A stretch of DNA of 64,000 nt from Guillardia theta CCMP2712. Its lineage: Eukaryota > Protista > Cryptophyta. A program made the position numbers and the translations under genes. Under the pieces are notes generated by a model. It searched no databases, was not told the origin of the DNA, and worked only from the letters and a program-made list of their open reading frames with translations. Positions within the stretch are counted from its first letter, which is position 1; each line of letters opens with the position of its first letter. Where the stretch lies: contig NW_005434656.1 of NCBI RefSeq assembly GCF_000315625.1, positions 293,741-357,740 of the forward strand, read 5' to 3'. This document shows, piece after piece, positions 10,578 through 47,487 of this stretch.

Positions 10578-10953
10578 TCGTTTCGGATTGTTGCCCCTCC
10601 TCCCTCGACTTCTTAGCTCCTAGTGTAAGGGTTGAAACCGGCTATAGGTTAACGTAGATTGGTCCGTCATGTTCACATGCTTGCATCGTTTCGGATTGTT
10701 GCCCCTCCTCCCTCGACTTCTTAGCTCCTAGTGTAAGGGTTGAATCTGATGCAGATAAACGTAGATTGGTCCGTCATGTTCACATGCTTGCATCGTTTCG
10801 GATTGTTGCCCCCTCCCCCTCGACTTCTTAGCTCCTAGTGTAAGGGTTGAAACCGGCTATAGGTTAACGTAGATTGGTCCGTCATGTTCACATGCTTGCA
10901 TCGTTTCGGATTGTTGCCCCTCCTCCCTCGACTTCTTAGCTCCTAGTGTAAGG
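10578..10953 (+). repeat. ~108-bp tandem repeat, 3.5 copies, with an alternating 13-14 nt variable segment (A,B,A)
   Basis: Units start at 10578, 10686, 10793 and 10901. Between GTTGAA and AACGTAGATTGG the segment reads ACCGGCTATAGGTT / TCTGATGCAGATA / ACCGGCTATAGGTT. Unit 4 stops at ...CCTAGTGTAAGG (10953). Confidence 0.95.
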
Positions 10954-11232
10954 CACGGGGGAGGAACTCCCAATAAAAGGGTCTAGTACCGGTATTTTTA
11001 TGATATTTTGGGGGTACCTTTTCAGGAGGGGGTGGGTGAGTTTGCAGGAAATCGCAATGGCAGCAAGGCGGCGACCAGGTTTAAGGATGATTTACTCAGC
11101 CTGTGCAATGATGACAATCGTGAAACCACCATAGCCTTTCAGGAAATTGTAAAATCTATATCATGGTATCAATCATTTGAATTGCATCGTAGCAGTGTTT
11201 AATATTTTCCACAATACGTATCTCTCTTTTTT

Positions 11233-14200
11233 CTACTTGCAGCCAGCAATGCTACGCAATCCCCGGAACCGTTGCATATTACCTGTTAATCCTTCATCCC
11301 ATTGCCCTGATTTAGCATATACTCGCTTTCGATTGTTCTTCTGCGTACTATTGTCTGGCTCCACATCATGATCAGATCCATCCCGTGCATTGAAAGCTTC
11401 ACGGTCGTGCGGTTTGCTCAGGACAATTCGCTTCTTCGAATGCTCGTACACAAAAGGCAGGTTTGGATCCACCTTTTTAGATAATTCTATGCATGCCTGA
11501 TTGAATTTTCTCAGAAAATCCTTCTTGTTCAGATGGCCGATCAAGGACCACAGATTCTCTACACTATCCGTGCAGAGAGTTCGTGAATTGAAGTCATAGT
11601 CTCTATCACCCAGCGCATGATTCTTATCCCTCACATACTGTTGTACTTGCAGATGAGTATCAATTGCAACTATGAAGCCTTCAAATGTTACAGATGATAG
11701 TCCCTTGACATGTTTTTGGCTGACACTGGTCCAGTCGATGCCTTCCAATAGCCATCTTCGACCCTCTTGAACGAGACGTATCCTCTCTGAAACTTTCAGC
11801 CCTCTTTCATCGAATGCTTTGTGCAGGCCAGACATGGCCTCTGCCATTCTTGCTGTCGCTTCATGTCCTTCTGCCCTTAGTAGACTGATGGCCTTGTCAC
11901 TGAACATCTTCAGCATGATATCCACCGATTGTGGATCGGCGGTCCCGTCGACTTCCATCTGAGTCATCCAAGCAGGATTCTTCTTGGCGATATCACTGTA
12001 AGCTTTATGCCATATCTGGGCTTCCGTAGAAGACGATTGAGACTTCCCTGATCCAATGGAATGCCTGACATTCTTCAACAAGTGATTGATGCACGGCGAG
12101 AAAAACAACAACTTGTTCGTAATTGGAGAGAGGACGGGATTGGATAACCATTCGTCGAATTTAAAGCGGATCTTGTGTTCATCAAAGTCATTTAGTCCAT
12201 CAGCTATTCTTCGCTCCATCTCCCAAGGAGTGAATGTTTCCCCCCCCCTCTTCATTGTGCTTGGCCAATGAAAGAACTTCTTCATATCCGTACCGTCTGC
12301 AAAATATTTGAAACCTGCAAAACATCTCTTTCAGGGTCGCTCTGGGCCTCTTGCTCGTGTGGCATCGTAGCGTCTTCTCCTTCTGAACTTGCCATATGGC
12401 CTGGTTCTGTCGTAACTGCAAAACAAACTGTTTGATTTCTCTCATTTCAGCAACATCCATGTGTACAATTCCTTGCTGAGGTGTGATGGGCAATGACGAC
12501 AAGTCATCACCATCGTACTCATCTGGATGGTCCAATGTGCACTCACTCTCAATGTCGTGCTCTGAAATTGGAGGTTCGAACTTGAATATCCCCGAAATGT
12601 ATGCTGAAATAGATGTACATAAATGTCTATATTCCATACTGGTTGCAGTCTTGTTAATGGCCTTCACTTCCTGAATGAATGTACTTGGCTTGTCTTGGTA
12701 GAAATAACGATATATACAGGCGAACTCCCCATCGAAAGACCACACATTGAAGTTCACGCCTCTCTTCCAAGCTTCATTGGTGACAGCTAAAAAAATATCC
12801 TTTCCATCTTTGGAACACAAACTTTTATGGGCAAAGCCGATGTAAACAGGCGCAGGAGGCATATGCTTTTGTCCATCCTGTGCAACAACACATATTGCAT
12901 CTTCTGCTAGTTCGGCGATCGCCGTCTTGTAGTACAAGTCATTGTATACATTTAATTCATCTTGAATTGAACGCTGCTCGTCCTCGCTTGGTGTGGCGGT
13001 ACTGATGTAGTTGTTCAGACGATCAATCAGTTGCGGCACTTGAGTTTGGATCTGACTACATCCCTCAATGACCCCGGCCATGTACAATTGATGTGGCGTA
13101 AACCTGACTTCATTAGAGACATTCCTTCTCGTATCTGCGTTGTTGCTAATCATTTTTGCAACATACTTATCACGAATTTTCTTGTAGTCCCGTTCAGTCG
13201 TTGATTTCCTTTCATTGATGTGATCCAAGTCAGTTTTCAATAAGCCTATCACATGCTCCCGAATCGATTCAGCGGTTGTTCCCTCCAAACAAAGCTGTGC
13301 CAACCGTCTCTGTCGCATCTCAAGCCGTTCACACAAATCCATTGTTTTCCCCGTGACTCCACCTAAATCTGCTTCGCAGTCTTCGAACTGTTTACAAAAC
13401 CCAGCATTGATCATCGTCTTGTCCATCGCCAACACATGAATACCATCTACAAGGTTAAAATTCATTTCACCGTAATCATGCAAAACCTCGCTGCAGATTC
13501 TTGACTTGTTTAGATCACGTGTCTTCATGTCTGCACTCTGCAGCTTATGAAGAGTAGATATGGACGGTAGAGGCAAGTTATGCAAAGCCTGATCAGAATG
13601 GAAGTTTCTCGTATACTTGTTCCCTGGACCTGACAGTAAACGGAACGTACTCCCGTCGCAAGCATTGAGAATTGTTGATGCGAAACTCAAAACCTCCGGA
13701 GAGAATCTCATGCCCCTCGAATCTTTCGCTCTGAAGCTCTGTTGACACCAATCCATGACGAGGTAAGGCATGATTCTATGTGTGCTTTTGAAAGCTTGGA
13801 TGTCGTTTCTGGCAAAGATTACTAACTCCGAAAGTATATCCGGCAATCCAGCAGAATGCAGATTTGAAACAGCATTTTCGAATTTACATATCGCAGATAG
13901 CTCATGCTCTGTATTCTTGTCATGTGTTTGACACAGAGAGTCGTGTTCACTCAAAATCCTTCTAATCATGTCACATCGGGTGTGGCTGTCAAGGGTTCTA
14001 AAAGTTTCAAGGACTGTCTGAATGAACAGTTCGGATTGCGCCTTGGCATGTTTGTTTGGAAGACTCTCACTTGTGTCAACATGTTCATCCGACATTCTTG
14101 CATACCTGTACAATGAACGTCAGGTCACTGGCATGGAAAGAAAGCAACATCTCAGACTTACTTCACAAAGTAATCGTGTATAGTAGTTTGCAATGAATTC

Positions 14201-14656
14201 AAATTCTCGAAGTGAGCAGTAGACCATTCTTCCATGCGAGAAAGAAGGTTTCGATTCTTCCTGTGAACGTTGCCAATACGTGTACGAAGTCGATTCAAGT
14301 GCTCATAAATGGCCTTTGTGCCTCCATGTGATTTGCCAGATGCTTGTTGTTCGAAAACCTGCATGTAGTGCTGGAGAAAACATCTCGAAAATCCTTCTGA
14401 TGTAGGCCCATAGACATCTCCGAGGACCTTTAGTTTGTTCTGGACTTCATACAAGGATACAGAACGAAGACTCCACTTGAGGTAATGGGTCACTGAAACT
14501 AAAAGATTCTCGTCTTCACACTCCACAGATAAAGTTGAATGGCCATGACATTGCAAGAAATCCAACAGCTTGAAAACCAAGGCATCATCCCATTGAGAGA
14601 GCAGGATCTGCTCAAGATCATTGCAATCCTTGTTTTTTTTCAACCCTCCAAATCAT
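11233..14656 (-). CDS. P-element/THAP9-like DDE transposase (~1120 aa when reconstructed; one intron and two +1 homopolymer frameshifts)
   Basis: Motifs VLAMDKTMI (D at 13421-13423), WSFDGE (D at 12731-12733), FFSPCINHLLKNVRH (C/DxxH-LLKNxR), DPQSV..KMFS, and RTLCTDSVENLWS (E at 11557-11559). Intron 14106-14161 (GTAAGT...CTGAC...TACAG) joins ORF 14158-14643 in frame to ORF 12200-14113. Removing one base from the A8 run (14633-14640) and one from the G9 run (12240-12248) gives an open 3366-nt CDS from ATG 14656. Confidence 0.7.
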
Positions 14657-15608
14657 CCTTGTCTATAGTGATGTGTTTAATAAATTGTATCCACGTCGAT
14701 GTATCACCCAGGGTGTTTTCATTCCTATATGCAATATTCTCGTAGACCCACATCCAATTGACAAAGATCGGGGTTCTGTATTCATCTCCAAGGTTATCTG
14801 TCTCTTCTTTGTAGGTTTTTAGTAGAATCTGTTTCACCTTTTCGTAGGCCTCGCTAGGTTCCTTTTTATTGTTTGCATATTGATCCAAATCACATTCGGT
14901 TGGATATTCTTCCAAATCTGTTTCGGTAACTTGGGACAGTGCATCCGATGACGCATCAATAGATTCCGTTACACCCGTGTCTGTCTCGGTGGACACGGAT
15001 TCCGTTTCATCGTATTCACGCGTCAGGCTCTTGAACCTCCTTTCGAGGTCTGATATGCTGATTTCTCTATTGAAAGACGGTGTGCTCTGATCTGCGTCCT
15101 CGACAAGTTTCATCCCCCTGTCCAACCTCTTCTTGTGCGCCATAAAGTGTACCTTGACATGTCTGATGTTCTTCATGCAGGATATGAGGAAGGGGACGAT
15201 GCTGTCTGGATCGCTGTGGTCTATGCTGATGTTCGAACAACCCTCAATGTACTTTGCCACAAGCTTCTCCATCATCACCTTCCTAAGGCACTCATCGGAC
15301 AAGTTCTTGATGGGTTCGGCCTTGGGTTGTGAGCACATTCTCTCCGCCTGTTTCCATTCCTGTGGGGTGATGGAGAATGCGGATCTTGCCTTTACATCCT
15401 TTCCAAGCACGCGGAAGGGCATCTTGAACGTGCCAAGAACCTTGATCTCCTTCACATGCCCCTCCAATGCAGCCCTATCAACGTGACTTATGTCTAGCGA
15501 TGGTGCTTTCTCAATCGCACTCCTCAACCCCGCCTCCATGCTGTTGCTTTTCCTATCATTCATCGCTCTTGTTAAGGGATACGGCGATGGATTTAAATGA
15601 CAAGACAA
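14640..15608 (-). CDS. Hypothetical 322-aa protein of the inserted element (acidic central tract)
   Basis: Intronless ORF from an ATG; abuts its neighbours. Confidence 0.7.
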   Translation of the reverse strand: MSCHLNPSPYPLTRAMNDRKSNSMEAGLRSAIEKAPSLDISHVDRAALEGHVKEIKVLGTFKMPFRVLGKDVKARSAFSITPQEWKQAERMCSQPKAEPIKNLSDECLRKVMMEKLVAKYIEGCSNISIDHSDPDSIVPFLISCMKNIRHVKVHFMAHKKRLDRGMKLVEDADQSTPSFNREISISDLERRFKSLTREYDETESVSTETDTGVTESIDASSDALSQVTETDLEEYPTECDLDQYANNKKEPSEAYEKVKQILLKTYKEETDNLGDEYRTPIFVNWMWVYENIAYRNENTLGDTSTWIQFIKHITIDKDDLEG

Positions 15609-15625
15609 TGTCTACAATCATGAAC

Positions 15626-16325
15626 CTACCTACGCTCTGGTATCTGTACTGTAAGCAACCTAGACATGCAAAAGGGGTCCTGATTGATCCTGACTATGTG
15701 GTCCACATCGTGTGGCACGCTCATCCGAAGTTGATCAAACTTAGAGATCACGCTCTTTTCAAACCCCACCCATTGGATGGAGTATACCGGGTTCAACCTC
15801 TTTGTATCGCACTTGGAAAGCAGTAGCTTGTAACGTTCAAATGGATGCGTGTCGAACAGGTAAACAGATTCCATCAAGACTGCATCGAATATCAAGATCT
15901 TGGGAATGTACTTGTCGATCGTGACTTGATCCTCCGTATAGTGTGCCAGTACGCATGAATCCATGGGGAGTGCGTTATTAAGCATTATGTCGGCCTGTGA
16001 AAGGTAAACCTTGCCGTGCAGGCCAATGAGAGTGAATCCATTCTTGTCCGTGTATAGGCTGAATGTGACCCGATTCTTTGGTAACCAAGTTGCAGTGTGT
16101 TCCTTTCTATCGTCTTCACATCGTTTAAAAGGCTTGTTATCGATCTCAATAACCCTTGTCAACTCCAACGGGATATTGAATATGTGCGACATTTCTGCAA
16201 GGCACATGTTCACAATAAACCGATCCAACATGCCTGAATCCATGTGTGAAAGTCGAAAGCTGTCATGCAAGCCTTTGTTTATATCAAAACCAAAAAAAAA
16301 CAACAGCTGTATTTAAGCGAATCAT
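15626..16325 (-). CDS. Nucleotidyltransferase-fold (mRNA capping guanylyltransferase/snurportin-like) protein lacking the KxDG catalytic motif
   Basis: KILIFDAVLMESVYLFDTHPFERYKLL resembles the motif IIIa...ER segment of capping enzymes/ligases. Removing one base from the T9 run (16292-16300) extends the ORF to ATG 16325 (699 nt). Confidence 0.5.
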
Positions 16326-16352
16326 GACGAAACATTGTTTGAGAAAGTCGAG

Positions 16353-17672
16353 ATGTCGGATAGCTCCTGGCCTATACAGACCTTTAAAGTCTTATCGTTG
16401 TTGACGAACCTTATCGCCCCCATCTTGAAGTCGTTGGGTATCTTCTTTCCTCAAATCGAGGTGTTGAAGAACTGCAGTCCATCGGCAGTTAAGACATGGA
16501 ACTTCTTTGCATGCCGTCGTGGTATCACCGGTGGTTTTTCACTTTCCAGTATCTTCTTCTCGACACTGGAGGGTTATAGCTACCATGCAAGTGCCGTGTA
16601 CGGTATTCACTTCGCCGCAATACTTTCATTGCTTTTCTTCCTTTACATGACAAGGGATGCTGACAAACTCCTTGATGTCTGCTACAACATCAACTTCATC
16701 AACGTAGTCAATGCGTTATTTGTCATTTTTGACATGTATTTTGGCTATGACCACGAAGTAGGGATTCAGAGTTCTTTCTTTGGATTTATCGTGTGTGATT
16801 TAATATGCCAGATTATCATCACTGCACTGATCGTTTACGTACTCCGTGAAGTTGCCCCAGATCTGGGGAGTTTGAAATCGGATAACCCCAACAAGCAATA
16901 TTACATCAACACTTTCCTGTACCGGATGGGACCAAACCCTTCTTTATGGATGCTGGTGAACGCCATTAGCATGCAATTGGTTTACTTGTGTACCGGGCAT
17001 GATGTATCGTTGCTTATACTTCGCATGGTATGTGTCGCTCTGTGCTACCTATCCATGTTCAAGTTCAGGATGTTCTTTTTCTATATGCAATATTCAGGTC
17101 ATCAATCCGAGTACGTTTCCCTCATGCACTGGCGAGATGTCGTCAAAGCATTCAAAAATACCACCAAACATTTCAATATCATAATGGAAGATGATTTCAG
17201 GAAGGATAGGATTGAAAAGTTCTTCGGTAATATAAATTCGCCTTTCTACGTGATCATCAATGCAAATATAACTACAGCCAATTGCACCGTTCTGAATCCT
17301 GATGAGATGATCCTCATGGCCATGTACTGGGATAATATGGAACAGTTCAGGAAAACGTTCCAAGACGCGGAATTATTCATCCAAGGACTTAAGACTGGAA
17401 CTGCTGCAAACGGTGGGAGGGGGTTCATTATAAAGACGCGTGAGAAAATTGAAGAGAAGAATAAGTCAAACATAATCTATTACCCAACTGAATTCACACA
17501 TATGCATACCGTGCGTGAGTTTCAGCTCAAAAAGGTTCCGACGACGTTTGACTATGAAAAGCATGGGGATAGTATCAAAAAATCTCCGACTGTACTCAAC
17601 TACATGTTCATTGCGCAAATGATGGGATCGGAACAGACTCGAAAGATAAGGAGTAGCAAAGGTGCAATCTGA
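16353..17672 (+). CDS. Multi-pass membrane protein (~6-7 hydrophobic segments) with soluble C-terminal domain, element-encoded
   Basis: Intronless ORF 16335-17672, first ATG at 16353; hydrophobic stretches such as GIHFAAILSLLFFLYM, FFGFIVCDLICQIIITALIVYVL and SLLILRMVCVALCYL. Confidence 0.7.
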   Translation: MSDSSWPIQTFKVLSLLTNLIAPILKSLGIFFPQIEVLKNCSPSAVKTWNFFACRRGITGGFSLSSIFFSTLEGYSYHASAVYGIHFAAILSLLFFLYMTRDADKLLDVCYNINFINVVNALFVIFDMYFGYDHEVGIQSSFFGFIVCDLICQIIITALIVYVLREVAPDLGSLKSDNPNKQYYINTFLYRMGPNPSLWMLVNAISMQLVYLCTGHDVSLLILRMVCVALCYLSMFKFRMFFFYMQYSGHQSEYVSLMHWRDVVKAFKNTTKHFNIIMEDDFRKDRIEKFFGNINSPFYVIINANITTANCTVLNPDEMILMAMYWDNMEQFRKTFQDAELFIQGLKTGTAANGGRGFIIKTREKIEEKNKSNIIYYPTEFTHMHTVREFQLKKVPTTFDYEKHGDSIKKSPTVLNYMFIAQMMGSEQTRKIRSSKGAI

Positions 17673-17785
17673 GTGTAAGAAAACACCCAGATCCTTGAGT
17701 TATCAATAAACGTCCGAATCTAACACATACGTGCCTAAAAACTATTTGAATATAATGTTCATTGAACGAGACAAAGTAGATATAG

Positions 17786-18163
17786 ATGTCAGTGAAGCTG
17801 TTATTATCAAATCAGCTAGATATTGTGAAGCATGATGATCAGATTATAGTGGAGAACGTTGCGAGTGTCATCCTGAGTCTTGGGAAAGAGTATGCCTTCC
17901 ATGACTTTGACATAAAGAAACACGATAGTGGATATGTTATGAGTGTAAAGACATCCCCGCACGCAAGCATATCCCTTGTAGACATGCAACTTATCAAAGA
18001 CTGCAACCCAATAAGGGTTCAAGACGTGTACGTGAATGTTATCGAAGGTGTGATTCGTGTGAATGTGATCATATTGAATTCAGGCATACCCGTTGTGATC
18101 ACGGATACCGACGTGATAAGGGTCAAGAAGAGGAAGATATGGAATATATTTCAGCGGGCATAG
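17786..18163 (+). CDS. Hypothetical 125-aa protein with C-terminal basic (KKRK) NLS-like patch
   Basis: ATG-initiated intronless ORF in the compact block. Confidence 0.65.
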   Translation: MSVKLLLSNQLDIVKHDDQIIVENVASVILSLGKEYAFHDFDIKKHDSGYVMSVKTSPHASISLVDMQLIKDCNPIRVQDVYVNVIEGVIRVNVIILNSGIPVVITDTDVIRVKKRKIWNIFQRA

Positions 18164-18171
18164 TCTATTCA

Positions 18172-18411
18172 TTACAATCTGTCCACCTTTAAGGCTGGGT
18201 TGTGACGTATAGATTTGGGCGGTGTTTTAGATCGAAATCGTTCAATGACCTCTACAACCTCCATCTTCATGTTCCTCCATGGGCAAGGGCATAGATCGTC
18301 CACTGCACATGGCTTTCTTTGCAACGGGCAGTAAATGCATCTTTTGGATTTAGGGTATACCCTACCAAAGACGTTCTGAACGCTTCTGCTTATCTTTTCG
18401 TAGGGTGACAT
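18172..18411 (-). CDS. Small basic Cys-containing hypothetical protein (79 aa)
   Basis: ATG ORF filling the gap between its neighbours; CIYC..C..CPC motif. Confidence 0.5.
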   Translation of the reverse strand: MSPYEKISRSVQNVFGRVYPKSKRCIYCPLQRKPCAVDDLCPCPWRNMKMEVVEVIERFRSKTPPKSIRHNPALKVDRL

Positions 18412-18439
18412 GCCTTGCTATCGAGGGGTCGTTGCGGTC

Positions 18440-19450
18440 TTAGTACTTTATATCGACACTAGTAAAACCCATGACATCTATCTCCTTATTGGTCAAATTA
18501 CGTATGCACATCTTAATAAGATTTTCAACCTCGGTGATGAACTTACACTTTATCTTAAAATAGCATTTCAGGTGGGCCTCGATGGGCAGCAGGTGCTGTA
18601 GCTCGTGTATCTTGGGTAGGAGTATAACGTTTTGCATGGTGATGCCCATTCTCATCAGGTATACGATCCCTATGAAGAGCACGTTTTTCTTGAACATCCC
18701 AAGCTGTGTACTGAACTTCTGTGACAACATATTCAAGAATCGGACAATGTATTCTGAAGCGGTGGAAGCAACGGATCTGCGCATCTCTTCGTCCCATTCG
18801 GGATAACAGATCCTTATCTTGCTACATTGGTGCAACATGTTGGTGACTATGTTGCAAAGCCTCGGTACTTTTCCTGGATTATTGATCTTGAAATCTTTTA
18901 AAAGTTTCCACATCACTTGCCTGTGCTTGAGCATCATTCTATTCTTTTCGTTCATGTAACTCTTCTTACAAACATCGGATGACAATATCCATACAAGGCA
19001 TTTATTCACTTCATCGAAACTGTAAAGACTATCCTCCACTGTTTTCTGTGACATGACCTTGTTGTAAAAGTCCCTGTTGCTCACGTTTGAGACCAAGATG
19101 TCTTCATCTAGCATCATATTATCCATGAATTCATCCATTGGGAACACCTTCTGTTTGACACAACACCCTGTAATGAAGCATACACGGCTATCGTTCTCAT
19201 CGATAAGGTCACAGCTACTTTCATCTTTGCAATTATGGACTTCACCACATTCCAAGCATCCTGCAAGATCCATATCGAATATGTCCCAATGGCTGCACTT
19301 GTGTCCACAAAGACCCCTGGGTATAACGAATGGGCATCTTATCATCCTCCATATCCTAACCCTGTGGTCAAGTTCTACCCTCTTCTTGTAATACTTGCTA
19401 TCCGCTTTGGGTCTGAATTGAAACGCGGGCTTAAGATTCGTTACACTCAT
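18440..19450 (-). CDS. Herpesvirus UL92/ORF31-like zinc-binding late-transcription-factor-like protein (336 aa)
   Basis: GCLECGEVHNCKDESSCDLIDENDSRVCFITG matches the CxxCxxxHxCxxxxxC-x10-VCxxTG spacing recalled for HCMV UL92/KSHV ORF31. Confidence 0.6.
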   Translation of the reverse strand: MSVTNLKPAFQFRPKADSKYYKKRVELDHRVRIWRMIRCPFVIPRGLCGHKCSHWDIFDMDLAGCLECGEVHNCKDESSCDLIDENDSRVCFITGCCVKQKVFPMDEFMDNMMLDEDILVSNVSNRDFYNKVMSQKTVEDSLYSFDEVNKCLVWILSSDVCKKSYMNEKNRMMLKHRQVMWKLLKDFKINNPGKVPRLCNIVTNMLHQCSKIRICYPEWDEEMRRSVASTASEYIVRFLNMLSQKFSTQLGMFKKNVLFIGIVYLMRMGITMQNVILLPKIHELQHLLPIEAHLKCYFKIKCKFITEVENLIKMCIRNLTNKEIDVMGFTSVDIKY

Positions 19451-19524
19451 ACTGCAATGCCCCCCTTCGGTAGATTAGTTTTTATTGTTTAAAATCACAA
19501 ATCAAAAAAGGATTGCTCTTTAAA

Positions 19525-21573
19525 TCACCCGGTTGTCATGATCCTTCTCTTTTTACCACACCTCCTTCTACTTTCCCTGGATCTATCATAGTTGACACAG
19601 GCACGGGCGAGGTCCTTGATGTCGATCACAAACTTCATGATGTACCTTGGGAGCATGTGTTTCATGCATAAGTAGAGCTGTATGTGAACCCCGTACTTTG
19701 CGTTCAATACCACCACCCTCTCAAGGTTTGATGTCTTCCCACACCTTATACACTCCTTGCAGCATGCCCTTCCATTCTTGATTAGGGTAGAGTTTGTGTC
19801 CGATGCCTCGAACTTGAAGTAACTTGACTTGCTCGACTTCCTATTCTTTATGTCATTGTAATAACCACCATGGTCACTGCTCGACATTTTGAGTATGGAG
19901 CTGAGTGAAGTCCCTATCCTTGGGTTCGAATAATGATTGGCGAACTCACATGGCTTCGTGAACTCATTTCCGGTATGGTTCCATCTCTTGAAGGTGCCGC
20001 AACATGGGCAGAGTATGTAGCTAGCGCCCTGTATGACGAGTATCTTGCCAAGCATGTTGACGCTTATGATAGAGTTATGAAGCCCACAGGAAGCACAGCG
20101 CAACTGGTTGGTCTGCATACATAGTCTGAGTTTCGATGAGACGGTAAAGCCATTGAGTTTGTTGCAGCACTTCATGCAGATGTGGACCTTCATCATGTTC
20201 TCCATTTGGAAATGGTCCGAGCTATATCTCTTTAGTATTGCAGAGCATTGCATCGCTGTAAGGTTACATGGAAGCGGATACACCTTACATCTAGAATGCA
20301 AGTGGTCTATGATGTTGAATTCTTCCACGGTTATGTTCGGGTTGTCACGGTGATAGATTTTCCAGAGCAGGCCATTGATATTCACAGGGTTCATGGATTT
20401 TGCTGCATCGAAGAGATGGTCCATATCATCCGTAATTCTCCTCCATTTTACCACGACCTCCTTGGATGGTGCATGTCTGCCAGACCTGAACTTACATGTC
20501 CTGACACATCGATCCACACACACAGTGGCGACTTCATCCAATCTATCCCACGTCCAATCTCCACTCTGTAGGGTCTCTTGTCGGAATGCATCGGCGACAT
20601 TGGGACAGATGTCAAAAAACGTCTGCATGCCTTGTACAGAACAAATGATCTCCTTCTCCGACACTATGAATGTGTTGCATGCATACCAGACGTACTCCAT
20701 GATCGACAACTTTAAAAGATTGAGGTTTGAATAGATGAACCTTGCCTGCTCTTGTAATGGTCTTGTCATCATCGATCTTAACTCACTCGCGCATCGCACC
20801 CTCTGTTCGAATGATGGCCTCTTCGCAGTATTGGGATACAAGCCAAGCAGGAGCCCGTGCATTATGTTGACTAGAACAGGTGTAGAAGGGTCAACAAAAA
20901 GCTCCTCTGCAAGAAAGGCGACCCTGTTCCTCTTCAAGCACGGGATACTGTTGCATATCACATTCAATATGAGGTTTGACTTCCAGTCCTTCTGTATGAG
21001 ACTTTGTGATATGAATCTTCCGATATCTGGTAGGGTGGAATGGTGGTAGGTGATACTAGGATGTAGCAACCTTGCATCGTTTGGTATGCGGTTGTATAGA
21101 TCTGGGAACTTCTTGGCGATCCAACAAGATATCAGGCTTCTATCAATCATCACTTGTGCATCGCGGATCCCGTGCTTAAGGTCTTCGTGTGTCTTCCTGA
21201 TGTAATGATCCAGCACCGGATCTTCTGGCCTGAATAGCGTTTGAATAGCTAAATCGCAACGTTTCGACATCTCGGTAAAAGCCGACGACCCGCCCGCAGA
21301 CAGGGCGTTCCACACCGCGTTAACATGGCGTGAGCATGCTCGCCCGACCTCCTTGTCGTGTACCTTGGCCTCCCCATCTGACTGACAACATGACGTCAAC
21401 ACCCATCCTGTCAGAAAAGACTCGTGCAAGTATGCAAGCATGAGCGTACCCTGACTCTTTATAATCGGTTCTCGTCGCTCGTTGAACATCACTGAAACAG
21501 CAATATTTTGATGATGACTGCTTCCCTGTTGTGTGCTCAATGAGGACAATGGCTCTGAGATTCTGAATGACAT
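19525..21573 (-). CDS. Herpesvirus UL49/ORF66-like Cys-rich late-transcription-factor-like protein (682 aa)
   Basis: C-terminal CMKCCNKLNG...CMQTNQLRCASCG...CPCCG...CIRCG resembles the CxxCGxxLN..CxxTxxxxCSxCG zinc-binding region recalled for HCMV UL49/KSHV ORF66; basic C-terminal tail RRRCGKKRR. Confidence 0.5.
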   Translation of the reverse strand: MSFRISEPLSSLSTQQGSSHHQNIAVSVMFNERREPIIKSQGTLMLAYLHESFLTGWVLTSCCQSDGEAKVHDKEVGRACSRHVNAVWNALSAGGSSAFTEMSKRCDLAIQTLFRPEDPVLDHYIRKTHEDLKHGIRDAQVMIDRSLISCWIAKKFPDLYNRIPNDARLLHPSITYHHSTLPDIGRFISQSLIQKDWKSNLILNVICNSIPCLKRNRVAFLAEELFVDPSTPVLVNIMHGLLLGLYPNTAKRPSFEQRVRCASELRSMMTRPLQEQARFIYSNLNLLKLSIMEYVWYACNTFIVSEKEIICSVQGMQTFFDICPNVADAFRQETLQSGDWTWDRLDEVATVCVDRCVRTCKFRSGRHAPSKEVVVKWRRITDDMDHLFDAAKSMNPVNINGLLWKIYHRDNPNITVEEFNIIDHLHSRCKVYPLPCNLTAMQCSAILKRYSSDHFQMENMMKVHICMKCCNKLNGFTVSSKLRLCMQTNQLRCASCGLHNSIISVNMLGKILVIQGASYILCPCCGTFKRWNHTGNEFTKPCEFANHYSNPRIGTSLSSILKMSSSDHGGYYNDIKNRKSSKSSYFKFEASDTNSTLIKNGRACCKECIRCGKTSNLERVVVLNAKYGVHIQLYLCMKHMLPRYIMKFVIDIKDLARACVNYDRSRESRRRCGKKRRIMTTG

Positions 21574-22167
21574 CGTTTACTTGAACATATGGCCACATAC
21601 AGAACGTTTTCACAGTAACATACATAGGTTGAAGAAAAAGCAGAGGTAAAGCGGAAATTGCAACGGGCAAACGTCGCTGCTTTCTGAGAATCAGTGTGTC
21701 AAGCTATGCAGATTCCAGTGAATTGCTCATTGGAAAGCGTGCATTGGAACCGCAAATCCTAAATGGAAGACCCAGACATCGAGAACATTCGCTGGAAGTG
21801 ACGAAGTTCATGCAATAAAAGACTACCGTTTCATGTTGTTGATGTTCTGCATGACTGCATCAGGCATACCACATGAGAGAATCATGCAATATACGTGATG
21901 CTGGAACCTCATACAAGTGTAGCATGACCTTTGCATGCGAATCCGATCTTCATTCTGTCCTCATTGCATGTCTACCTCATGAACTTGAATGCATCGGTGG
22001 AACAAATTCCTAACAGTTCAAAAAAAGAGTGGGTTGTGGTACAAATTGATAACTGGAGTCTTGAACTGGGATCACCTATGGATTTAACCTAGATCTTAAC
22101 CCCTTTCTCCAGGTTAACTAAAGTGGGCACACTACGCTACGCTATTCAGAAGGTCATCCATAAAACC

Positions 22168-22223
22168 CCTAGTGTAAGGGTTGAAACTGATGCAGATGAA
22201 CGTAGATTGGTCCGTCATGTTCA
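22168..22223 (+). repeat. Distal half-copy of the 108-bp repeat (B-type variable segment)
   Basis: CCTAGTGTAAGGGTTGAA-ACTGATGCAGATG-AACGTAGATTGGTCCGTCATGTTCA matches 10727-10782 with two substitutions. Confidence 0.9.
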
Positions 22224-22907
22224 ACTTTCAAGGACATATAGGACACGGTTCCGACTTCAAACTGAAGCCTAAAAGTTCCCCCCGCCGCCGGCCGCGCGGC
22301 GCGCGCCGGCCGCGGCCCGACTCGCGACTCCGGCCTGAGTCTTTACTCAAAGTTAAGTTGGCCAGTCCGACGGTCCGACCGGTCACTCGCCCAGGGCGCC
22401 CGGCGCCGGGGACTCGACTGAGTCGGAGGGCCCGGCTTTAAGCCGGGCCGCGGCAGCCAAGTTAAGTGTGAAGGTGATGCCGATCAGTTAAGTTGGGGGA
22501 CAGCACTGCACAGTAAAAGGGCTCGTACTGTTTTTAACTTAAATTTGAGTAAAGTTTTAGTACAGTGATGCGACTTTGCCTAGTTTACATCTTTCGGAGG
22601 GCTCCAAGTTTTACGCCCCCAGGCGGGACGGTCGCATTTCAACTTTTTTGAAAAACAATAAAAACGAGCATAAAACAATCGACAGAAGGGGGACGTTTAA
22701 TACAGCTCAATAAATACCGGAAATCTGCATTAAACAAAGGTGATCGGGAAGCTCGCATGTGTGGAATGAATGTTGACTGAAACTGCGATTGACAATAAAG
22801 AATAGATAATGTCGATATTCTATTGGACATTTGTAGTAAGCAATAAAAAGTTCACATCCCCGCAACTTGTAGATTCCTCATTCCAGGGGAACGTGAGTAG
22901 AAGCGGC

Positions 22908-23771
22908 ATGGTACCGAGCTCTTGTTCACGGAGCGCTTGCTGTCCCCTCCTCGTCTCGAGCTTGCTTACTATCTCGTTCTTGATCTCGCCTGTCAGGGCT
23001 GAGCTGTCCATTGTGGGTGCAGGATGGGGGCGTACAGGGACGATGAGTCTGAAAGTGGCCCTGGACAAGTTGGGGTACAAGACCTACCATATGATCGAGA
23101 TCATCGAGCACAATTCCCATCATCTTGACCTGTGGATCGAACTTGCTGAGCTCCATTCCCAAGGCAAGCCTTACAAGCATGTCATCCACACCATCTTCGA
23201 GAACTACACCGCGGCTGTGGACTTTCCTGCTGCTGCGTGGTGGAAGGAGATTCTGGAGACCTTTCCGAATTCAAAGGTCATCCTCAGTACAAGAGACCCT
23301 GAAAGATGGTACAACTCTGCTAAGGAGACCATCTTTCAGGCGCTATGGCACCACAGGATCCTTGGGCTGTTTGTTCCTCTCTCGCGCAAGTTCACTGTCA
23401 TGGTGCCATCCCTGTGGGACAAGGTTCTGGGAAAAGGGAGGCGGCCGACAGACTCCAAGGAGGAGACGATCAAAGCATATCTCCAGGACGCGGAAAGATT
23501 CAGAAAGTTGAATCTGCCCAAGAGGAGGAAGTTGGAGATCGCAGTCGGCAAGGAAGGTTGGAAGCCTTTGTGCGATTTCCTAGAGATTTCGCCGGGGTCA
23601 TGTCCCACTGAGCCTTTCCCTCGGCTGAACGATCAGGCCGAGTTCAAGATGAGAGCTCTCCTCCCTTTGCGCACTGTTGCTGTCATGGTGCTGCTGTCTC
23701 CTGTCGGACTTGCCTGCCTTGTATGGTGCTTCTTCTTCAGGTCCAAAGGCAAGTCGGGCAAGAAGGAGTGA
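22908..23771 (+). CDS. Sulfotransferase-family (Sulfotransfer_4-like) protein with signal peptide and C-terminal TM helix
   Basis: IVGAGWGRTGTMSLKVALDKLGYKTYHM, AVDFPAA, KVILSTRDPERWYNS, EGWKPLCDFL, EPFPRLND; intronless. Confidence 0.85.
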   Translation: MVPSSCSRSACCPLLVSSLLTISFLISPVRAELSIVGAGWGRTGTMSLKVALDKLGYKTYHMIEIIEHNSHHLDLWIELAELHSQGKPYKHVIHTIFENYTAAVDFPAAAWWKEILETFPNSKVILSTRDPERWYNSAKETIFQALWHHRILGLFVPLSRKFTVMVPSLWDKVLGKGRRPTDSKEETIKAYLQDAERFRKLNLPKRRKLEIAVGKEGWKPLCDFLEISPGSCPTEPFPRLNDQAEFKMRALLPLRTVAVMVLLSPVGLACLVWCFFFRSKGKSGKKE

Positions 23772-27056: not shown

Positions 27057-30000
27057 CTACATGATATTGTCTGGGAGAGTCTCAGACTCGCATGCTGTGA
27101 TCTCCCCATGAGCCAGGACTGTCAACGTGGTTTCCTCCTCCTTGAACAGTGATTGCTCCGCATCTTCTTCTCCTCTGTACTGCTGTAACTCGTGGACGTC
27201 GTTAGGCGTCTCGTTCTGGTTGTAATACAATCCTCGGCCCTCACTGTCTTTGTACTCCTTCCAGCTGACCAGATTGCGGGCGCTTGTTGCCTTGTAAAAC
27301 TCGCCCTGGCTGTGATCATGAGCTCTCATGCCCGGCAGAGGGATAGAGAAGGCGCTCGTCATGGTGACGTCATCATCCGAGACGATCTTGAGGCAATGAT
27401 CAAAGCCCAAGTGTGACGTTGTCTGAAGGAGCTCTGTGTTCTGTGTAGAGAAGGGCAACGCCATGTCCGGGTCGAGCTGACGTAGAGACGACGTCTGGTC
27501 ATCCTGACTTGTCCGTTGCTGAGTTTGGTTGAAAAGCGAGAAGTGGCGAAAACCAAATACCCCCAGCCCGAACGTGAGCAATGAGAGTGAGGCAGCAAAG
27601 ATCATGCCATCTGTCAGCATTCTTTGAGATTTCTCTGGAGTCGTTGAAGCAGAAATTATCATGATCAGTGATGTGTCATTGAACGAGGCCATGGCTGTCC
27701 CGTTCAACGAGGCAATCGCAGTCCCGTTCGACGTAGCAAAAGCTGTTGAGGAATTGTACTCAATAGATGCATTGGGAATTGGAAGATGAGATGACGTCCG
27801 GGTAACAACACAAGATGATAAGTTTGAATCTGGAAACGAGCCTGTAGGACACGCCGTACACGAAGTCGAGCCCGCGCTGCCCTGCACATACCCTGCTGGA
27901 CACTCCATACACTGAGACGACCCGGTCGTGTTCTGATAGGCGCAAAGTCAGCAAGCAGCAAGCTAGCAGGTGGCAGACGCCTTGCTTTGACCTGATACGA
28001 GCCTGCAGGACACGCCGTACACGAAGTCGAGCCCGCGCTGCCCTGCACATACCCTGCTGGACACTCCATACACTGAGACGACCCGGTCGTGTTCTGATAG
28101 GCGCAAAGTCAGCAAGCAGCAAGCTAGCAGGTGGCAGACGCCTTGCTTTGACCTGATACGAGCCTGCAGGACACGCCGTACACGAAGTCGAGCCCGCGCT
28201 GCCCTGCACATACCCTGCTGGACACTCCATACACTGAGACGACCCGGTCGTGTTCTGATAGGCGCATAGTCAGCAAGCAGCAAGCTAGCAGGTGGCAGAC
28301 GCCTTGCTTTGACCTGATACGAGCCTGCAGGACACGCCGTACACGAAGTCGAGCCCGCGCTGCCCTGCACATACCCTGCTGGACACTCCATACACTGAGA
28401 CGACCCGGTCGTGTTCTGATAGGCGCAAAGTCAGCAAGCAGCAAGCTAGCAGGTGGCAGACGCCTTGCTTTGACCTGATACGAGCCTGCAGGACACGCCG
28501 TACACGAAGTCGAGCCCGCGCTGCCCTGCACATACCCTGCTGGACACTCCATACACTGAGACGACCCGGTCGTGTTCTGATAGGCGCAAAGTCAGCAAGC
28601 AGCAAGCTAGCAGGTGGCAGACGCCTTGCTTTGACCTGATACGAGCCTGCAGGACACGCCGTACACGAAGTCGAGCCCGCGCTGCCCTGCACATACCCTG
28701 CTGGACACTCCATACACTGAGACGACCCGGTCGTGTTCTGATAGGCGCAAAGTCAGCAAGCAGCAAGCTAGCAGGTGGCAGACGCCTTGCTTTGACCTGA
28801 TACGAGCCTGCAGGACACGCCGTACACGAAGTCGAGCCCGCGCTGCCCTGCACATACCCTGCTGGACACTCCATACACTGAGACGACCCGGTCGTGTTCT
28901 GATAGGCGCAAAGTCAGCAAGCAGCAAGCTAGCAGGTGGCAGACGCCTTGCTTTGACCTGATACGAGCCTGCAGGACACGCCGTACACGAAAGTCGAGCC
29001 CGCGCTGCCCTGCACATACCCTGCTGGACACTCCATACACTGAGACGACCCGGTCGTGTTCTGATAGGGCGCAAAGTCAGCAAGCAGCAAGCTAGCAGGT
29101 GGCAGACGCCTTGCTTTGACCTGATACGAGCCTGCAGGACACGCCCGTACACGAAGTCGAGCCCGCGCTGCCCTGCACATACCCTGCTGGACACTCCATA
29201 CACTGAGACGACCCGGTCGCGTTCTGATAGGCGCCCCAAAGTTCGGTGGTTTTCAGCAAAAGGGCAGCCAAAAAGCTAAAGCAAAGGTGGCAGACGCCTT
29301 GCTTTGGGTGGCAGACCGCCCTGTGATACGAGCCTGCAAGGAACACCTGCCGGGCCACGCCGTACACGAAGTCGAGCCCGCGCTGCCCTGCACATACCCC
29401 TGCTGGACACTCCATACACTGAGACGACCCGGTCGTGTTCTGATAGGCGCAAAGTCAGCAAGCAGCAAGCTAGCAGGTGGCAGACGCCTTGCTTTGACCT
29501 GATACGAGCCTGCAGGACACGCCGTACACGAAGTCGAGCCCGCGCTGCCCTGCACATACCCTGCTGGACACTCCATACACTGAGACGACCCGGTCGTGTT
29601 CTGATAGGCGCAAAGTCAGCAAGCAGCAAGCTAGCAGGTGGCAGACGCCTTGCTTTGACCTGATACGAGCCTGCAGGACACGCCGTACACGAAGTCGAGC
29701 CCGCGCTGCCCTGCACATACCCTGCTGGACACTCCATACACTGAGACGACCCGGTCGTGTTCTGATAGGCGCAAAGTCAGCAAGCAGCAAGCTAGCAGGT
29801 GGCAGACGCCTTGCTTTGACCTGATACGAGCCTGCAGGACACGCCGTACACGAAGTCGAGCCCGCGCTGCCCTGCACATACCCTGCTGGACACTCCATAC
29901 ACTGAGACGACCCGGTCGTGTTCTGATAGGCGCAAAGTCAGCAAGCAGCAAGCTAGCAGGTGGCAGACGCCTTGCTTTGACCTGATACGAGCCTGCAGGA

Positions 30001-33000
30001 CACGCCGTACACGAAGTCGAGCCCGCGCTGCCCTGCACATACCCTGCTGGACACTCCATACACTGAGACGACCCGGTCGTGTTCTGATAGGCGCATAGTC
30101 AGCAAGCAGCAAGCTAGCAGGTGGCAGACGCCTTGCTTTGACCTGATACGAGCCTGCAGGACACGCCGTACACGAAGTCGAGCCCGCGCTGCCCTGCACA
30201 TACCCTGCTGGACACTCCATACACTGAGACGACCCGGTCGTGTTCTGATAGGCGCAAAGTCAGCAAGCAGCAAGCTAGCAGGTGGCAGACGCCTTGCTTT
30301 GACCTGATACGAGCCTGCAGGACACGCCGTACACGAAGTCGAGCCCGCGCTGCCCTGCACATACCCTGCTGGACACTCCATACACTGAGACGACCCGGTC
30401 GTGTTCTGATAGGCGCAAAGTCAGCAAGCAGCAAGCTAGCAGGTGGCAGACGCCTTGCTTTGACCTGATACGAGCCTGCAGGACACGCCGTACACGAAGT
30501 CGAGCCCGCGCTGCCCTGCACATACCCTGCTGGACACTCCATACACTGAGACGACCCGGTCGTGTTCTGATAGGCGCAAAGTCAGCAAGCAGCAAGCTAG
30601 CAGGTGGCAGACGCCTTGCTTTGACCTGATACGAGCCTGCAGGACACGCCGTACACGAAGTCGAGCCCGCGCTGCCCTGCACATACCCCTGCTGGACACT
30701 TCCATACACTGAGACGACCCGGTCGTGTTCTGATAGGCGAAAAGTCAGCAAGCAGCAAGCTAGCAGGTGGCAGACGCCTTGCTTTGACCTGATACGAGCC
30801 TGCAGGACACGCCGTACACGAAGTCGAGCCCGCGCTGCCCTGCACATACCCTGCTGGACACTCCATACACTGAGACGACCCGGTCGTGTTCTGATAGGCG
30901 CAAAGTCAGCAAGCAGCAAGCTAGCAGGTGGCAGACGCCTTGCTTTGACCTGATACGAGCCTGCAGGACACGCCGTACACGAAGTCGAGCCCGCGCTGCC
31001 CTGCACATACCCTGCTGGACACTCCATACACTGAGACGACCCGGTCGTGTTCTGATAGGCGCAAAGTCAGCAAGCAGCAAGCTAGCAGGTGGCAGACGCC
31101 TTGCTTTGACCTGATACGAGCCTGCAGGACACGCCGTACACGAAGTCGAGCCCGCGCTGCCCTGCACATACCCTGCTGGACACTCCATACACTGAGACGA
31201 CCCGGTCGTGTTCTGATAGGCGCAAAGTCAGCAAGCAGCAAGCTAGCAGGTGGCAGACGCCTTGCTTTGACCTGATACGAGCCTGCAGGACACGCCGTAC
31301 ACGAAGTCGAGCCCGCGCTGCCCTGCACATACCCTGCTGGACACTCCATACACTGAGACGACCCGGTCGTGTTCTGATAGGCGCAAAGTCAGCAAGCAGC
31401 AAGCTAGCAGGTGGCAGACGCCTTGCTTTGACCTGATACGAGCCTGCAGGACACGCCGTACACGAAGTCGAGCCCGCGCTGCCCTGCACATACCCTGCTG
31501 GACACTCCATACACTGAGACGACCCGGTCGTGTTCTGATAGGCGCAAAGTCAGCAAGCAGCAAGCTAGCAGGTGGCAGACGCCTTGCTTTGACCTGATAC
31601 GAGCCTGCAGGACACGCCGTACACGAAGTCGAGCCCGCGCTGCCCTGCACATACCCTGCTGGACACTCCATACACTGAGACGACCCGGTCGTGTTCTGAT
31701 AGGCGCAAAGTCAGCAAGCAGCAAGCTAGCAGGTGGCAGACGCCTTGCTTTGACCTGATACGAGCCTGCAGGACACGCCGTACACGAAGTCGAGCCCGCG
31801 CTGCCCTGCACATACCCTGCTGGACACTCCATACACTGAGACGACCCGGTCGTGTTCTGATAGGCGCAAAGTCAGCAAGCAGCAAGCTAGCAGGTGGCAG
31901 ACGCCTTGCTTTGACCTGATACGAGCCTGCAGGACACGCCGTACACGAAGTCGAGCCCGCGCTGCCCTGCACATACCCTGCTGGACACTCCATACACTGA
32001 GACGACCCGGTCGTGTTCTGATAGGCGCAAAGTCAGCAAGCAGCAAGCTAGCAGGTGGCAGACGCCTTGCTTTGACCTGATACGAGCCTGCAGGACACGC
32101 CGTACACGAAGTCGAGCCCGCGCTGCCCTGCACATACCCTGCTGGACACTCCATACACTGAGACGACCCGGTCGTGTTCTGATAGGCGCAAAGTCAGCAA
32201 GCAGCAAGCTAGCAGGTGGCAGACGCCTTGCTTTGACCTGATACGAGCCTGCAGGACACGCCGTACACGAAGTCGAGCCCGCGCTGCCCTGCACATACCC
32301 TGCTGGACACTCCATACACTGAGACGACCCGGTCGTGTTCTGATAGGCGCAAAGTCAGCAAGCAGCAAGCTAGCAGGTGGCAGACGCCTTGCTTTGACCT
32401 GATACGAGCCTGCAGGACACGCCGTACACGAAGTCGAGCCCGCGCTGCCCTGCACATACCCTGCTGGACACTCCATACACTGAGACGACCCGGTCGTGTT
32501 CTGATAGGCGCAAAGTCAGCAAGCAGCAAGCTAGCAGGTGGCAGACGCCTTGCTTTGACCTGATACGAGCCTGCAGGACACGCCGTACACGAAGTCGAGC
32601 CCGCGCTGCCCTGCACATACCCTGCTGGACACTCCATACACTGAGACGACCCGGTCGTGTTCTGATAGGCGCAAAGTCAGCAAGCAGCAAGCTAGCAGGT
32701 GGCAGACGCCTTGCTTTGACCTGATACGAGCCTGCAGGACACGCCGTACACGAAGTCGAGCCCGCGCTGCCCTGCACATACCCTGCTGGACACTCCATAC
32801 ACTGAGACGACCCGGTCGTGTTCTGATAGGCGCAAAGTCAGCAAGCAGCAAGCTAGCAGTGGCAGACGCCTTGCTTTGACCTGATACGAGCCTGCAGGAC
32901 ACGCCGTACACGAAGTCGAGCCCGCGCTGCCCTGCACATACCCTGCTGGACACTCCATACACTGAGACGACCCGGTCGTGTTCTGATAGGCGCAAAGTCA

Positions 33001-41321: not shown

Positions 41322-41992
41322 CAGACTGTTCCCTTGAGGCTAGGGCAGAGAGAGGAGGACGCGGGAGGAGAAGGCAGGGGAGGCAAGGAAACAATCGAGA
41401 GGAGGAGGAGGAGAGGGGAGGGAGAGAGAAGGGGAGCGACAAGATGTAAAAAGACACCGAGGCAGTCAGGACCGGCTTGACCGTGGCTATGACGTTGGGT
41501 AGAAACGCAAGCGCTCTCCAGCAAAGATGAAGAGACGGAATAAAAGGATCGCGAGAAGGGAGGACAAGAGCAAGGCTTATCAGAAAGGTCCGGGGAGGCG
41601 CTAATGCCGTGACAGCATGCAGAGAGGAGTCCTGGTATCTGCTGCCATGGGCTGGGCTCGACAGCTTGCGGCTGCTGCTTGGCTGCTTGGGGGAGCGGGG
41701 GAGCATGGTTTGACCGCCCCTCCCACAACAAACTTTGCGGAGGTGGCGAGTGCCCAGTCTGACCGCCACTCGGCGTTATCGGCCCCGGGGCCCGGAGGAA
41801 TATATTACAGCCTGAGGCGGAGCCGTTTTCATTGCCTTGACAACGGTTGAAACGTTTTGACTGCCGCAGGACATGACGACCTTGCCAAGCAGGAACAAGC
41901 AACGAGACCACTGACTGCTCAGGGCAGTGCAGAAGACATGTTCTTGAGGCACAAGATGGATTGCTCATTTCTGATATTGAAGTTCTGAAAGG

Positions 41993-46747: not shown

Positions 46748-47487
46748 GCACAGACTTCCACATACGTCTTAGGAAGACTATGGTTCTGAAACGCGTCAGC
46801 TGAGTCGTTCCTTGAGCAATGTTTCAGAAATGAAATATACATGTCGACCAGACACAAATCCGTGAAAATTTCACTTGCGCACTCTCTTTACTGATTCAAG
46901 TTTGTGAGATTGCCGTCATCAGTTTTGCGAATGATAAAGCACCATGAAACCATCTACACATTTGAAACTTGAGAACGAGCATTTTGAAATAAAGAAAACG
47001 ATTCCAAATACAGGTTCGAAAAACAGCACTCGCGGCTTTCGAGCAATGACCTGAGGCGAGCTTGGAGAACCAGAAAAAGTTTGTGGGAGGGGCGGTCAAA
47101 CCATGCTCCCCCGCTCCCCCAAGCAGCCAAGCAGCAGCCGCAAGCTGTCGAGCCTAGCCCATGGCAGCAGATACCAAGACTCCTCTCTGCATGCTGTCAC
47201 GGCATTAGTGACTCCCCGGACCTTTCTGATAAGCCTTGCTCTTGTCCTCCCTTCTCGCGATCCTTTCCTTCCCGCTCTTCCTCTTTGCTGGAGAGTGCTT
47301 GCGTTTCTACCCAACGTCATAGCCACGGTCAAGCCGGTCCTGACTGCCTCGGTGTCTTTTTACATCTTGTCGCTCCCCTTCTCTCTCCCTCCCCTCTCCT
47401 CCTCCCCCTCTCGATTGTTTCCTTGCCTCCCCTGCCTTCTCCTCCCGCGTCCTCCTCTCTCTGCCCTAGCCTCAAGGGAACAGTCTG

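Follow-up and report, generated by a model that had tools for sequence, protein, structure and literature searches.

The 64,000-nucleotide stretch of the Guillardia theta CCMP2712 genome analyzed here (NCBI RefSeq assembly GCF_000315625.1, contig NW_005434656.1, positions 293,741 to 357,740; hereafter the window, numbered from its first letter) contains a block at 10954-22174 in which genes related to those of herpesviruses and mirusviruses lie between the ends of a P-like DDE transposon. An initial annotation had described this block as compact with sharp ends, which is borne out both by its GC content (42-48% per kb, compared with about 49-53% in the flanks) and by the 108-bp host tandem array that it interrupts. 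The features of the locus, including its open reading frames (ORFs), are as follows.

10578-10953, no strand: 108-bp host tandem array, 3.5 units; the last unit is split by the transposon and continues at 22175-22223
10949-10953, plus strand: left copy of the probable 5-bp target-site duplication TAAGG (length deduced)
10954-14645, no strand: left arm of the multicopy P-like DDE transposon, starting with CAC and containing most of the transposase gene
10954-12768, plus strand: spliced antisense RNA over the 3' part of the transposase gene, with introns at 11079-11375 and 11461-11514 (GT..AG on the plus strand)
11233-12246, minus strand: C-terminal part of the transposase, with the CxxH motif and the last catalytic Glu motif
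12242-14105, minus strand: middle exon of the transposase, with two Asp motifs; 98% identity to residues 1-510 of the G. theta proteins P0028 and P0153
14106-14161, minus strand: predicted 56-nt GT-AG intron; the homolog P0162 aligns in register on both sides
14162-14645, minus strand: upstream transposase exon, which in this copy lacks its own start codon
14640-15563, minus strand: 307-residue orphan ORF, with its last codon and stop in transposon sequence
14646-21226, no strand: 6.6-kb captured mirusvirus-like fragment (the core, or cargo), delimited by the depth of a single contig and by synteny with the freshwater contig L001
15626-16243, minus strand: 205-residue protein of the mRNA-capping/ligase adenylation fold, viral type, by Atlas fold match
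16353-17672, plus strand: 439-residue orphan protein with multiple predicted membrane spans (sequence only)
17786-18163, plus strand: 125-residue viral protein, 42% identical to L001:14644-15021
18440-19450, minus strand: 336-residue UL92-family late-transcription-factor-like protein (PF03048, E = 1.2e-6, above cut-off)
19525-21573, minus strand: 682-residue chimeric UL49/ORF66-like ORF, about 115 transposon residues fused in frame to a 5'-truncated viral protein
21227-22174, no strand: right arm, ending with GTG, with a 116-codon ORF (21573-21226) and presumably a promoter
22175-22179, plus strand: right copy of the probable target-site duplication TAAGG, from the sequence and the end of another copy

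Copy structure was judged from the contigs and reads of four public sequencing runs and three metagenomes mapped on the window, together with protein look-ups; run X18 is a runoff metagenome from another study, X6 is RNA by the tool's guess and holds a spliced contig, and X21 consists of raw RNA reads. In X4, the host flank contigs have depths of 121-123 (121.2 and 123.2), the bins over 10901-14636 and 21175-22108 have depths of 268-1244 and 707-879, respectively, and 14599-21256 is recovered as one 6658-nt contig with zero differences at depth 187. X1 has the same pattern (flanks 8.5-11, core 10-14, arms 22-92). Relative to single-copy depth, the X4 arms are at 2 to 10 times and the X4 core at about 1.5 times. 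Other copies depart from the window sequence at 14645/6 (three X4 contigs) and at 21226/7 (X4, X1, and X18 contigs), and an X18 contig starts at exactly 10954. From these depths, and from where the contigs of other copies diverge, begin, or end, we conclude that the arms are two parts of one multicopy transposon with CAC..GTG ends, and that both inner junctions are internal points of it. The block, initially annotated as a single element, is thus not homogeneous: multicopy arms enclose a low-copy core, and GC content at third codon positions is 0.44-0.48 in the transposase exons and 0.51-0.58 in the six core ORFs. A misassembly joining a viral contig to collapsed repeats might produce such a structure, as the arms are repeats and no listed piece spans the full stretch. 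However, both inner junctions are crossed by X1 and X4 contigs (reaching 47 nt into the left arm and 30 nt into the right), X6 also crosses the right junction by 277 nt, and the split array unit continues correctly after 11 kb, such that we regard misassembly as extremely improbable. The initial annotation had named as one of its refuting cases a chance insertion of the transposon into an old viral fragment. The transposase is indeed common elsewhere without these genes, but the sequence beyond the transposon ends contains nothing viral, the flanks being host array and host genes; the junction data contradict this explanation, since the viral fragment lies inside the transposon and the nesting is the reverse, and it is very improbable.

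The insertion site can be read from the host array, in which three units contain CTAGTG-TAAGG-GTTGAA and the fourth stops after TAAGG at 10953 and picks up at 22175. An X6 contig from a different copy tracks the right end of the transposon to 22175 and then departs. A target duplication of 5 bp most simply fits the sequences of the one insertion and of the one other copy's end, and is preferred because 7 or 8 bp would need three or four chance matches in that one other copy. The right end of the element, first placed at 22179, most likely is 22174, with the last 5 bp being duplicated target. A 12-bp duplication with recombinase-type integration was ruled out, as another copy retains element sequence up to 22175. 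We also rejected an X4 joint between 10397 and 22340 as an empty site, because a common repeat accounts for the 20 letters of its short side and the flank contig continues at full depth. The target carries CCTAGTG, which is also present at the element's own end beside the duplication. The terminal repeats are weak, with six of the first nine bases matching and no perfect inverted repeat found at the element ends, and Rfam gave no matches in the window. We take the CAC..GTG ends and the probable 5-bp duplication to be Transib-like end features, and their combination with a P-like transposase may represent an undescribed lineage.

The C-terminal part of the transposase matches the P-element-like GTP-binding insertion and RNase H clusters in Atlas (0.97, with 10 of the 10 best matches in one clan, at a recognition of 2212, below the threshold of 2300), in agreement with the P-like DDE transposase first annotated. 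Its Asp, Asp, CxxH, and Glu motifs presumably resemble those of P transposases. Alignment-based Pfam and PDB sequence searches of the transposase gave no match, nor did Pfam for a THAP zinc finger, for which the N terminus of the gene is not defined. A Helitron was ruled out by the lack of Rep/helicase and the presence of a DDE enzyme. Only part of the claim of one evident intron in the block stands: the reading frame is broken near 12240 by a one-base shift within a C run, an intron at 12300-12400 being ruled out by comparison with the continuous sister ORFs, and it is at 14106-14161 that an intron is predicted, with no splicing of it seen in the runs mapped. The upstream exon of the window copy is cut off from the right arm. 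Transposase gene models are present on at least eight other G. theta scaffolds, and include both close relatives (P0028, P0153, P0154, P0158, and P0166) and a diverged subfamily (P0029, P0155, and P0156). P0028 and P0153 are continuous 845-residue ORFs with 98-99% identity to the two frames of the window copy, and these two sister ORFs could provide transposase in trans. Near-identical copies of the transposon are also found in X16, X18, and X19 (freshwater or runoff metagenomes), with several contigs 98-100% identical over 10954-14645; X16 has host-like contigs as well (depth 6-7). On another G. theta scaffold, P0021 and P0162 represent a 503- to 521-residue host protein that resembles the N-terminal part of the transposase only (25-34%), and is possibly a domesticated transposase derivative, as far as the similarity indicates. 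The introns of the antisense RNA are supported by 10 and 65 junction reads in X21 and by an X6 contig. This RNA is abundant and has no long ORF; its source may be this or any other copy of the family, and it is a possible silencing or regulatory transcript of the transposon.

Within the core, Pfam upholds the UL92-like assignment of the initial annotation, and Atlas does the same for the capping-fold protein, which matches viral clusters at 0.94-0.96 (PF01331 being found on 50% of the rank-4 cluster), while a PDB sequence search with it was empty. The start codon at 16325 first proposed for this ORF opens only 15 codons, and its start at 16243 widens the divergent gap from 27 to 109 bp. The multimembrane protein is present as a hydrophobic 439-residue ORF, as predicted, but no family could be assigned to it (Pfam and PHROGs), and it is unlike its positional neighbor in L001. 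The 307-residue ORF has no homolog in Pfam, PHROGs, IMG/VR, or the related loci described below, and is probably 3'-truncated because its last codon and stop come from the transposon. Four of the cargo genes are apparently whole. As the initial annotation had also noted, no capsid, terminase, or polymerase gene is found in the block, either among the six core ORFs or with a capsid query. PHROGs gave nothing below E = 0.02 for 12 proteins, and IMG/VR had no match for the UL49-like protein, its alignment, the UL92-like protein, the 307-residue ORF, or either terminus. X21 reads barely cover the core, and X16 has no cover at 16110-17822; we do not read thin cover as absence.

UL49-like proteins are encoded by 30 metagenome loci (263 kb of partial contigs), and one of these, the freshwater contig L001, has UL49-like, UL92-like, and 125-residue genes in the same order as in the window, with 50, 48, and 42% identity. 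L001 also encodes a heliorhodopsin and a 1230-residue ORF, the family of which (764 matches, 112 aligned, with P0030 folded) includes the large ORFs of L001 and L029. For the model of this family, the best matches are to major capsid proteins of herpesviruses (E = 7.6e-7, at a low template modeling [TM] score of ~0.2), and the top match is a Lake sturgeon herpesvirus entry that also leads a published mirusvirus capsid row (PMC12768974). The capsid alignment gave only two matches against PDB sequences, at E > 3. Capsid-family genes are present in 6 of the 30 loci, four of them near-identical, and the first 430 residues of the L001 capsid-like protein are matched by a G. theta protein at 93% identity; the viral lineage is therefore endogenous in the host. 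L001 thus links the window, at 42-50% identity, to the herpes-like HK97 capsid, heliorhodopsin, and UL92 family of the Mirusviricota, and from these similarities the core is judged to derive from a mirusvirus-like genome. Just upstream of the UL49-like gene, 27 of the 30 loci carry a Cys-rich partner gene encoding 250-280 residues (L001:8958-12598, L029:9216-11449, and 25 other loci), which has no Pfam match and is absent from the window. Together with the UL49-like gene and UL92, which is adjacent in L001, this partner may make up a mirusvirus cluster of herpes-type late transcription genes, in which its role could, as a guess, be UL95/ORF34-like. A relative of the UL49/UL92 region, ~80% alike, is present in X16 at depth 130.

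The UL49-like ORF shows that the viral sequence was cut. Compared with nine relatives, it has 0-23% identity as far as residue 120 and 33-100% in most blocks thereafter, and its ten closest relatives align only inward from 21225-21300, with a loss of ~60-95 residues (about 80). For the close relatives, the aligned region starts at 21234 or close to it, 8 bases from the depth junction. The frame contributed by the transposon arm was not equaled in length in any of 2000 arm shuffles, and in other copies this transposon ORF appears to end at the junction, as seen in loose ends of 30 letters. The viral piece is thus cut through the UL49-like gene at one end, and likely through a gene at the other. 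Besides itself, the ORF has 17 homologs, two of them from the cryptophyte Hanusia phi, and the window protein forms a one-member, one-contig cluster. Foldseek with the 682-residue model (mean pLDDT of 70) places gammaherpesvirus ORF66 at ranks 1 and 2 (E = 4e-3 and 1e-2; TM score of 0.12), and UL49/gene 66 again at ranks 22 and 24. However, none of the 17 aligned members matches the UL49 Pfam model, and a VIA wide search with the model gave no Z of 5 or more. A UL49/ORF66-like ORF is present as first annotated, with weak fold support, and the predicted UL49/ORF66 identity is a lead and not a proof. An X6 contig (19519-21503) spans the transposon-virus junction and extends to 6 bases beyond the stop codon, with 16972-19306 uncovered. 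The fusion is thus seen in one of the two RNA-like runs, the probable RNA run X6, and not in the X21 reads.

Taken together, we consider it quite likely that a 6.6-kb mirusvirus-like fragment is nested in a single copy of a multicopy P-like transposon, probably captured by gap repair, and that the result is a nonautonomous element resembling Pack-type transposons. A break, either within a transposon copy or at its excision site, would have been repaired with mirusvirus DNA via template switching or end joining, with a mirusvirus in the same nucleus, infecting or endogenous, as the donor. The transposon promoter would then drive the fusion transcript, and the composite would move only via transposase from intact sister copies, which could move all of it since the transposon ends were left intact. 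The central expectation of the initial annotation, that transposon ends enclose herpes- or mirusvirus-related genes together with a P-like transposase, is confirmed by Pfam, synteny, and the depth junctions. Its further suggestion of a virus-transposon system analogous to Teratorn, the piggyBac-alloherpesvirus fusion of fish, fares less well. If a mirusvirus were stably fused to a transposase and the window held a deleted derivative, then viral genes between transposon ends with a target duplication, the endogenous presence of the same viral lineage, and a core depth of 1.5 times single copy would all be accommodated. Nonetheless, the arms are far more numerous than the core; the transposase, found apart from these ORFs on the other scaffolds, is encoded in none of the 30 related loci, including the six with a capsid gene (these being partial contigs, with the closest relatives lacking readable context); the viral DNA splits a transposase unit that is itself broken and is cut inside genes; and the block lacks capsid, terminase, and polymerase genes. 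We therefore favor viral cargo in a transposon over a virus with its own transposase, and consider stable fusion highly improbable. A composite route, in which two transposon copies in a virus or endogenous virus lost their inner parts and their outer ends moved viral DNA here, has been proposed for Teratorn (PMC10175614) and would also yield a left and a right arm around viral DNA. It is improbable, however, as self-BLAST shows no leftover inner terminus or second arm copy, and the arms are nonoverlapping parts of one element and follow each other in the correct order, such that two well-placed deletions would be needed.

Several observations weigh against capture of a mirusvirus fragment by one transposon copy. 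Three of the six core ORFs (307, 205, and 439 residues) have no homolog in the 30 loci, and the UL49-like relatives closest to the window (78-79%; P0002 and P0003) have no readable context. A diverged relative of 14772-15164, in the 307-residue ORF, is found in X4 and X16, and hence a further copy of this ORF exists in the host or in its viruses; X4 has no matching UL49-like pieces, and the ORF may be nonviral. Normal-copy sequence between 14645 and 21227 is visible only as loose ends of 30 letters. Copies were estimated from contig depth, which is a rough measure and not a copy number, and the core depth of 1.53 times single copy in X4 (1.05-1.55 in X1) makes a further composite copy possible; the X4 value could reflect either GC bias or an extra identical copy carried by some of the cells or alleles. 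That the composite has moved since capture is conceivable, and we lean somewhat against it. We regard as unlikely the broader proposal that the composite is still mobile and was copied at least once by its sisters (the extra half unit of depth), with its promoter expressing the UL49-like fusion, and would be a first Teratorn-like step and a carrier of mirusvirus genes, with the donor viruses using a herpes-type late complex. A viral function of this copy is unlikely because two of six late-factor subunits are present, one of them chimeric, without capsid, terminase, or polymerase.

Comparison with known systems places the element closest to Pack-type transposons, whose ends enclose captured gene fragments and whose transposase acts in trans (PMC6431247). 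It shares with these and with Pack-Mutator-like elements (Pack-MULEs) the captured foreign genes between its own ends, a nonautonomous nature, and a chimeric ORF and transcript. Pack-MULEs mostly carry 1- to 2-kb host fragments on a Mutator carrier (PMC6431247), whereas here the cargo is viral, 6.6 kb long, and with four apparently whole genes, and the carrier is P-like and keeps most of its transposase gene, with movement of the cargo being a possibility only. Teratorn likewise has Duplodnaviria genes between cut-and-paste transposon ends, but it comprises an entire virus genome, its transposase is active, and its subtype 1 numbers 30-40 copies (PMC10175614), as opposed to the cut fragment, broken transposase, and ~1-1.5 copies seen here; the window element agrees with Teratorn in its terminus and target duplication, and differs in four of five features (whole genome, intact transposase, many copies, and linkage in relatives). 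The Teratorn review describes it as the first DNA transposon-DNA virus fusion, of unclear generality (PMC10175614). P elements have 8-bp duplications, perfect 13- to 31-bp terminal repeats, and a THAP domain (PMC7776569); the carrier shares with this superfamily the C-terminal likeness to the P GTP-binding insertion and RNase H (at a recognition below threshold), and has instead probably a 5-bp duplication, a weak repeat, and no THAP match. Endogenous mirusviruses of cryptophytes (major capsid protein clade E03) have capsid genes in G. theta and two other cryptophyte assemblies (PMC10827195), whereas the piece in the window lacks a capsid gene and sits within a transposon; the string "transpos" does not occur in the available part of that article. 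A Styxvirales genome is annotated with UL92-family genes and a 208-residue capping-domain gene, and a UL92 orthogroup is annotated in 313 mirusvirus genomes, some mirusvirus orders having no RNA polymerase of their own; UL49/ORF66 is absent from the portions of the text and supplements searched (PMC12768974). Two of the six subunits of the beta- and gammaherpesvirus late complex (UL49, UL79, UL87, UL91, UL92, and UL95) are recognizable in the window, but one of the two is truncated and chimeric, and the TBP-like subunit is absent from the block. In the predicted herpesvirus complex, UL49 and UL92 both act via this TBP-like subunit and are not described as direct partners (PMC12197705). We found no description of transposon-captured mirusvirus genes or of a mirusvirus UL49 homolog in the literature covered, which is that outside subscription journals and Repbase.

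Elsewhere in the window, an ordinary host sulfotransferase-domain gene lies to the right of the element (22809-23771). An 11-kb array (27836-38885) of a 161-bp unit, in ~68 copies that are 97-99% alike, is attached to a Cys-rich ephrin-receptor-like gene, and a 3-kb inverted duplicate (38708-41728 and 47081-50152; 97%) encodes surface-type proteins of 941 and 948 residues.

The window element is a single chimeric occurrence and falls far short of a new virus-transposon lifestyle. It nonetheless gives a base-resolution view of large-virus DNA entering, and perhaps spreading in, a protist genome without an integrase, inside a host transposon, and is a small, broken counterpart of Teratorn in a culturable alga. 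Because intact helper copies exist in that alga, its mobility is testable. In these mirusvirus-like viruses, UL92 appears to be accompanied by a UL49/ORF66-like factor, and if the presence of such a gene on capsid-bearing contigs is confirmed, then the late transcription machinery of beta- and gammaherpesviruses would extend to mirusviruses.

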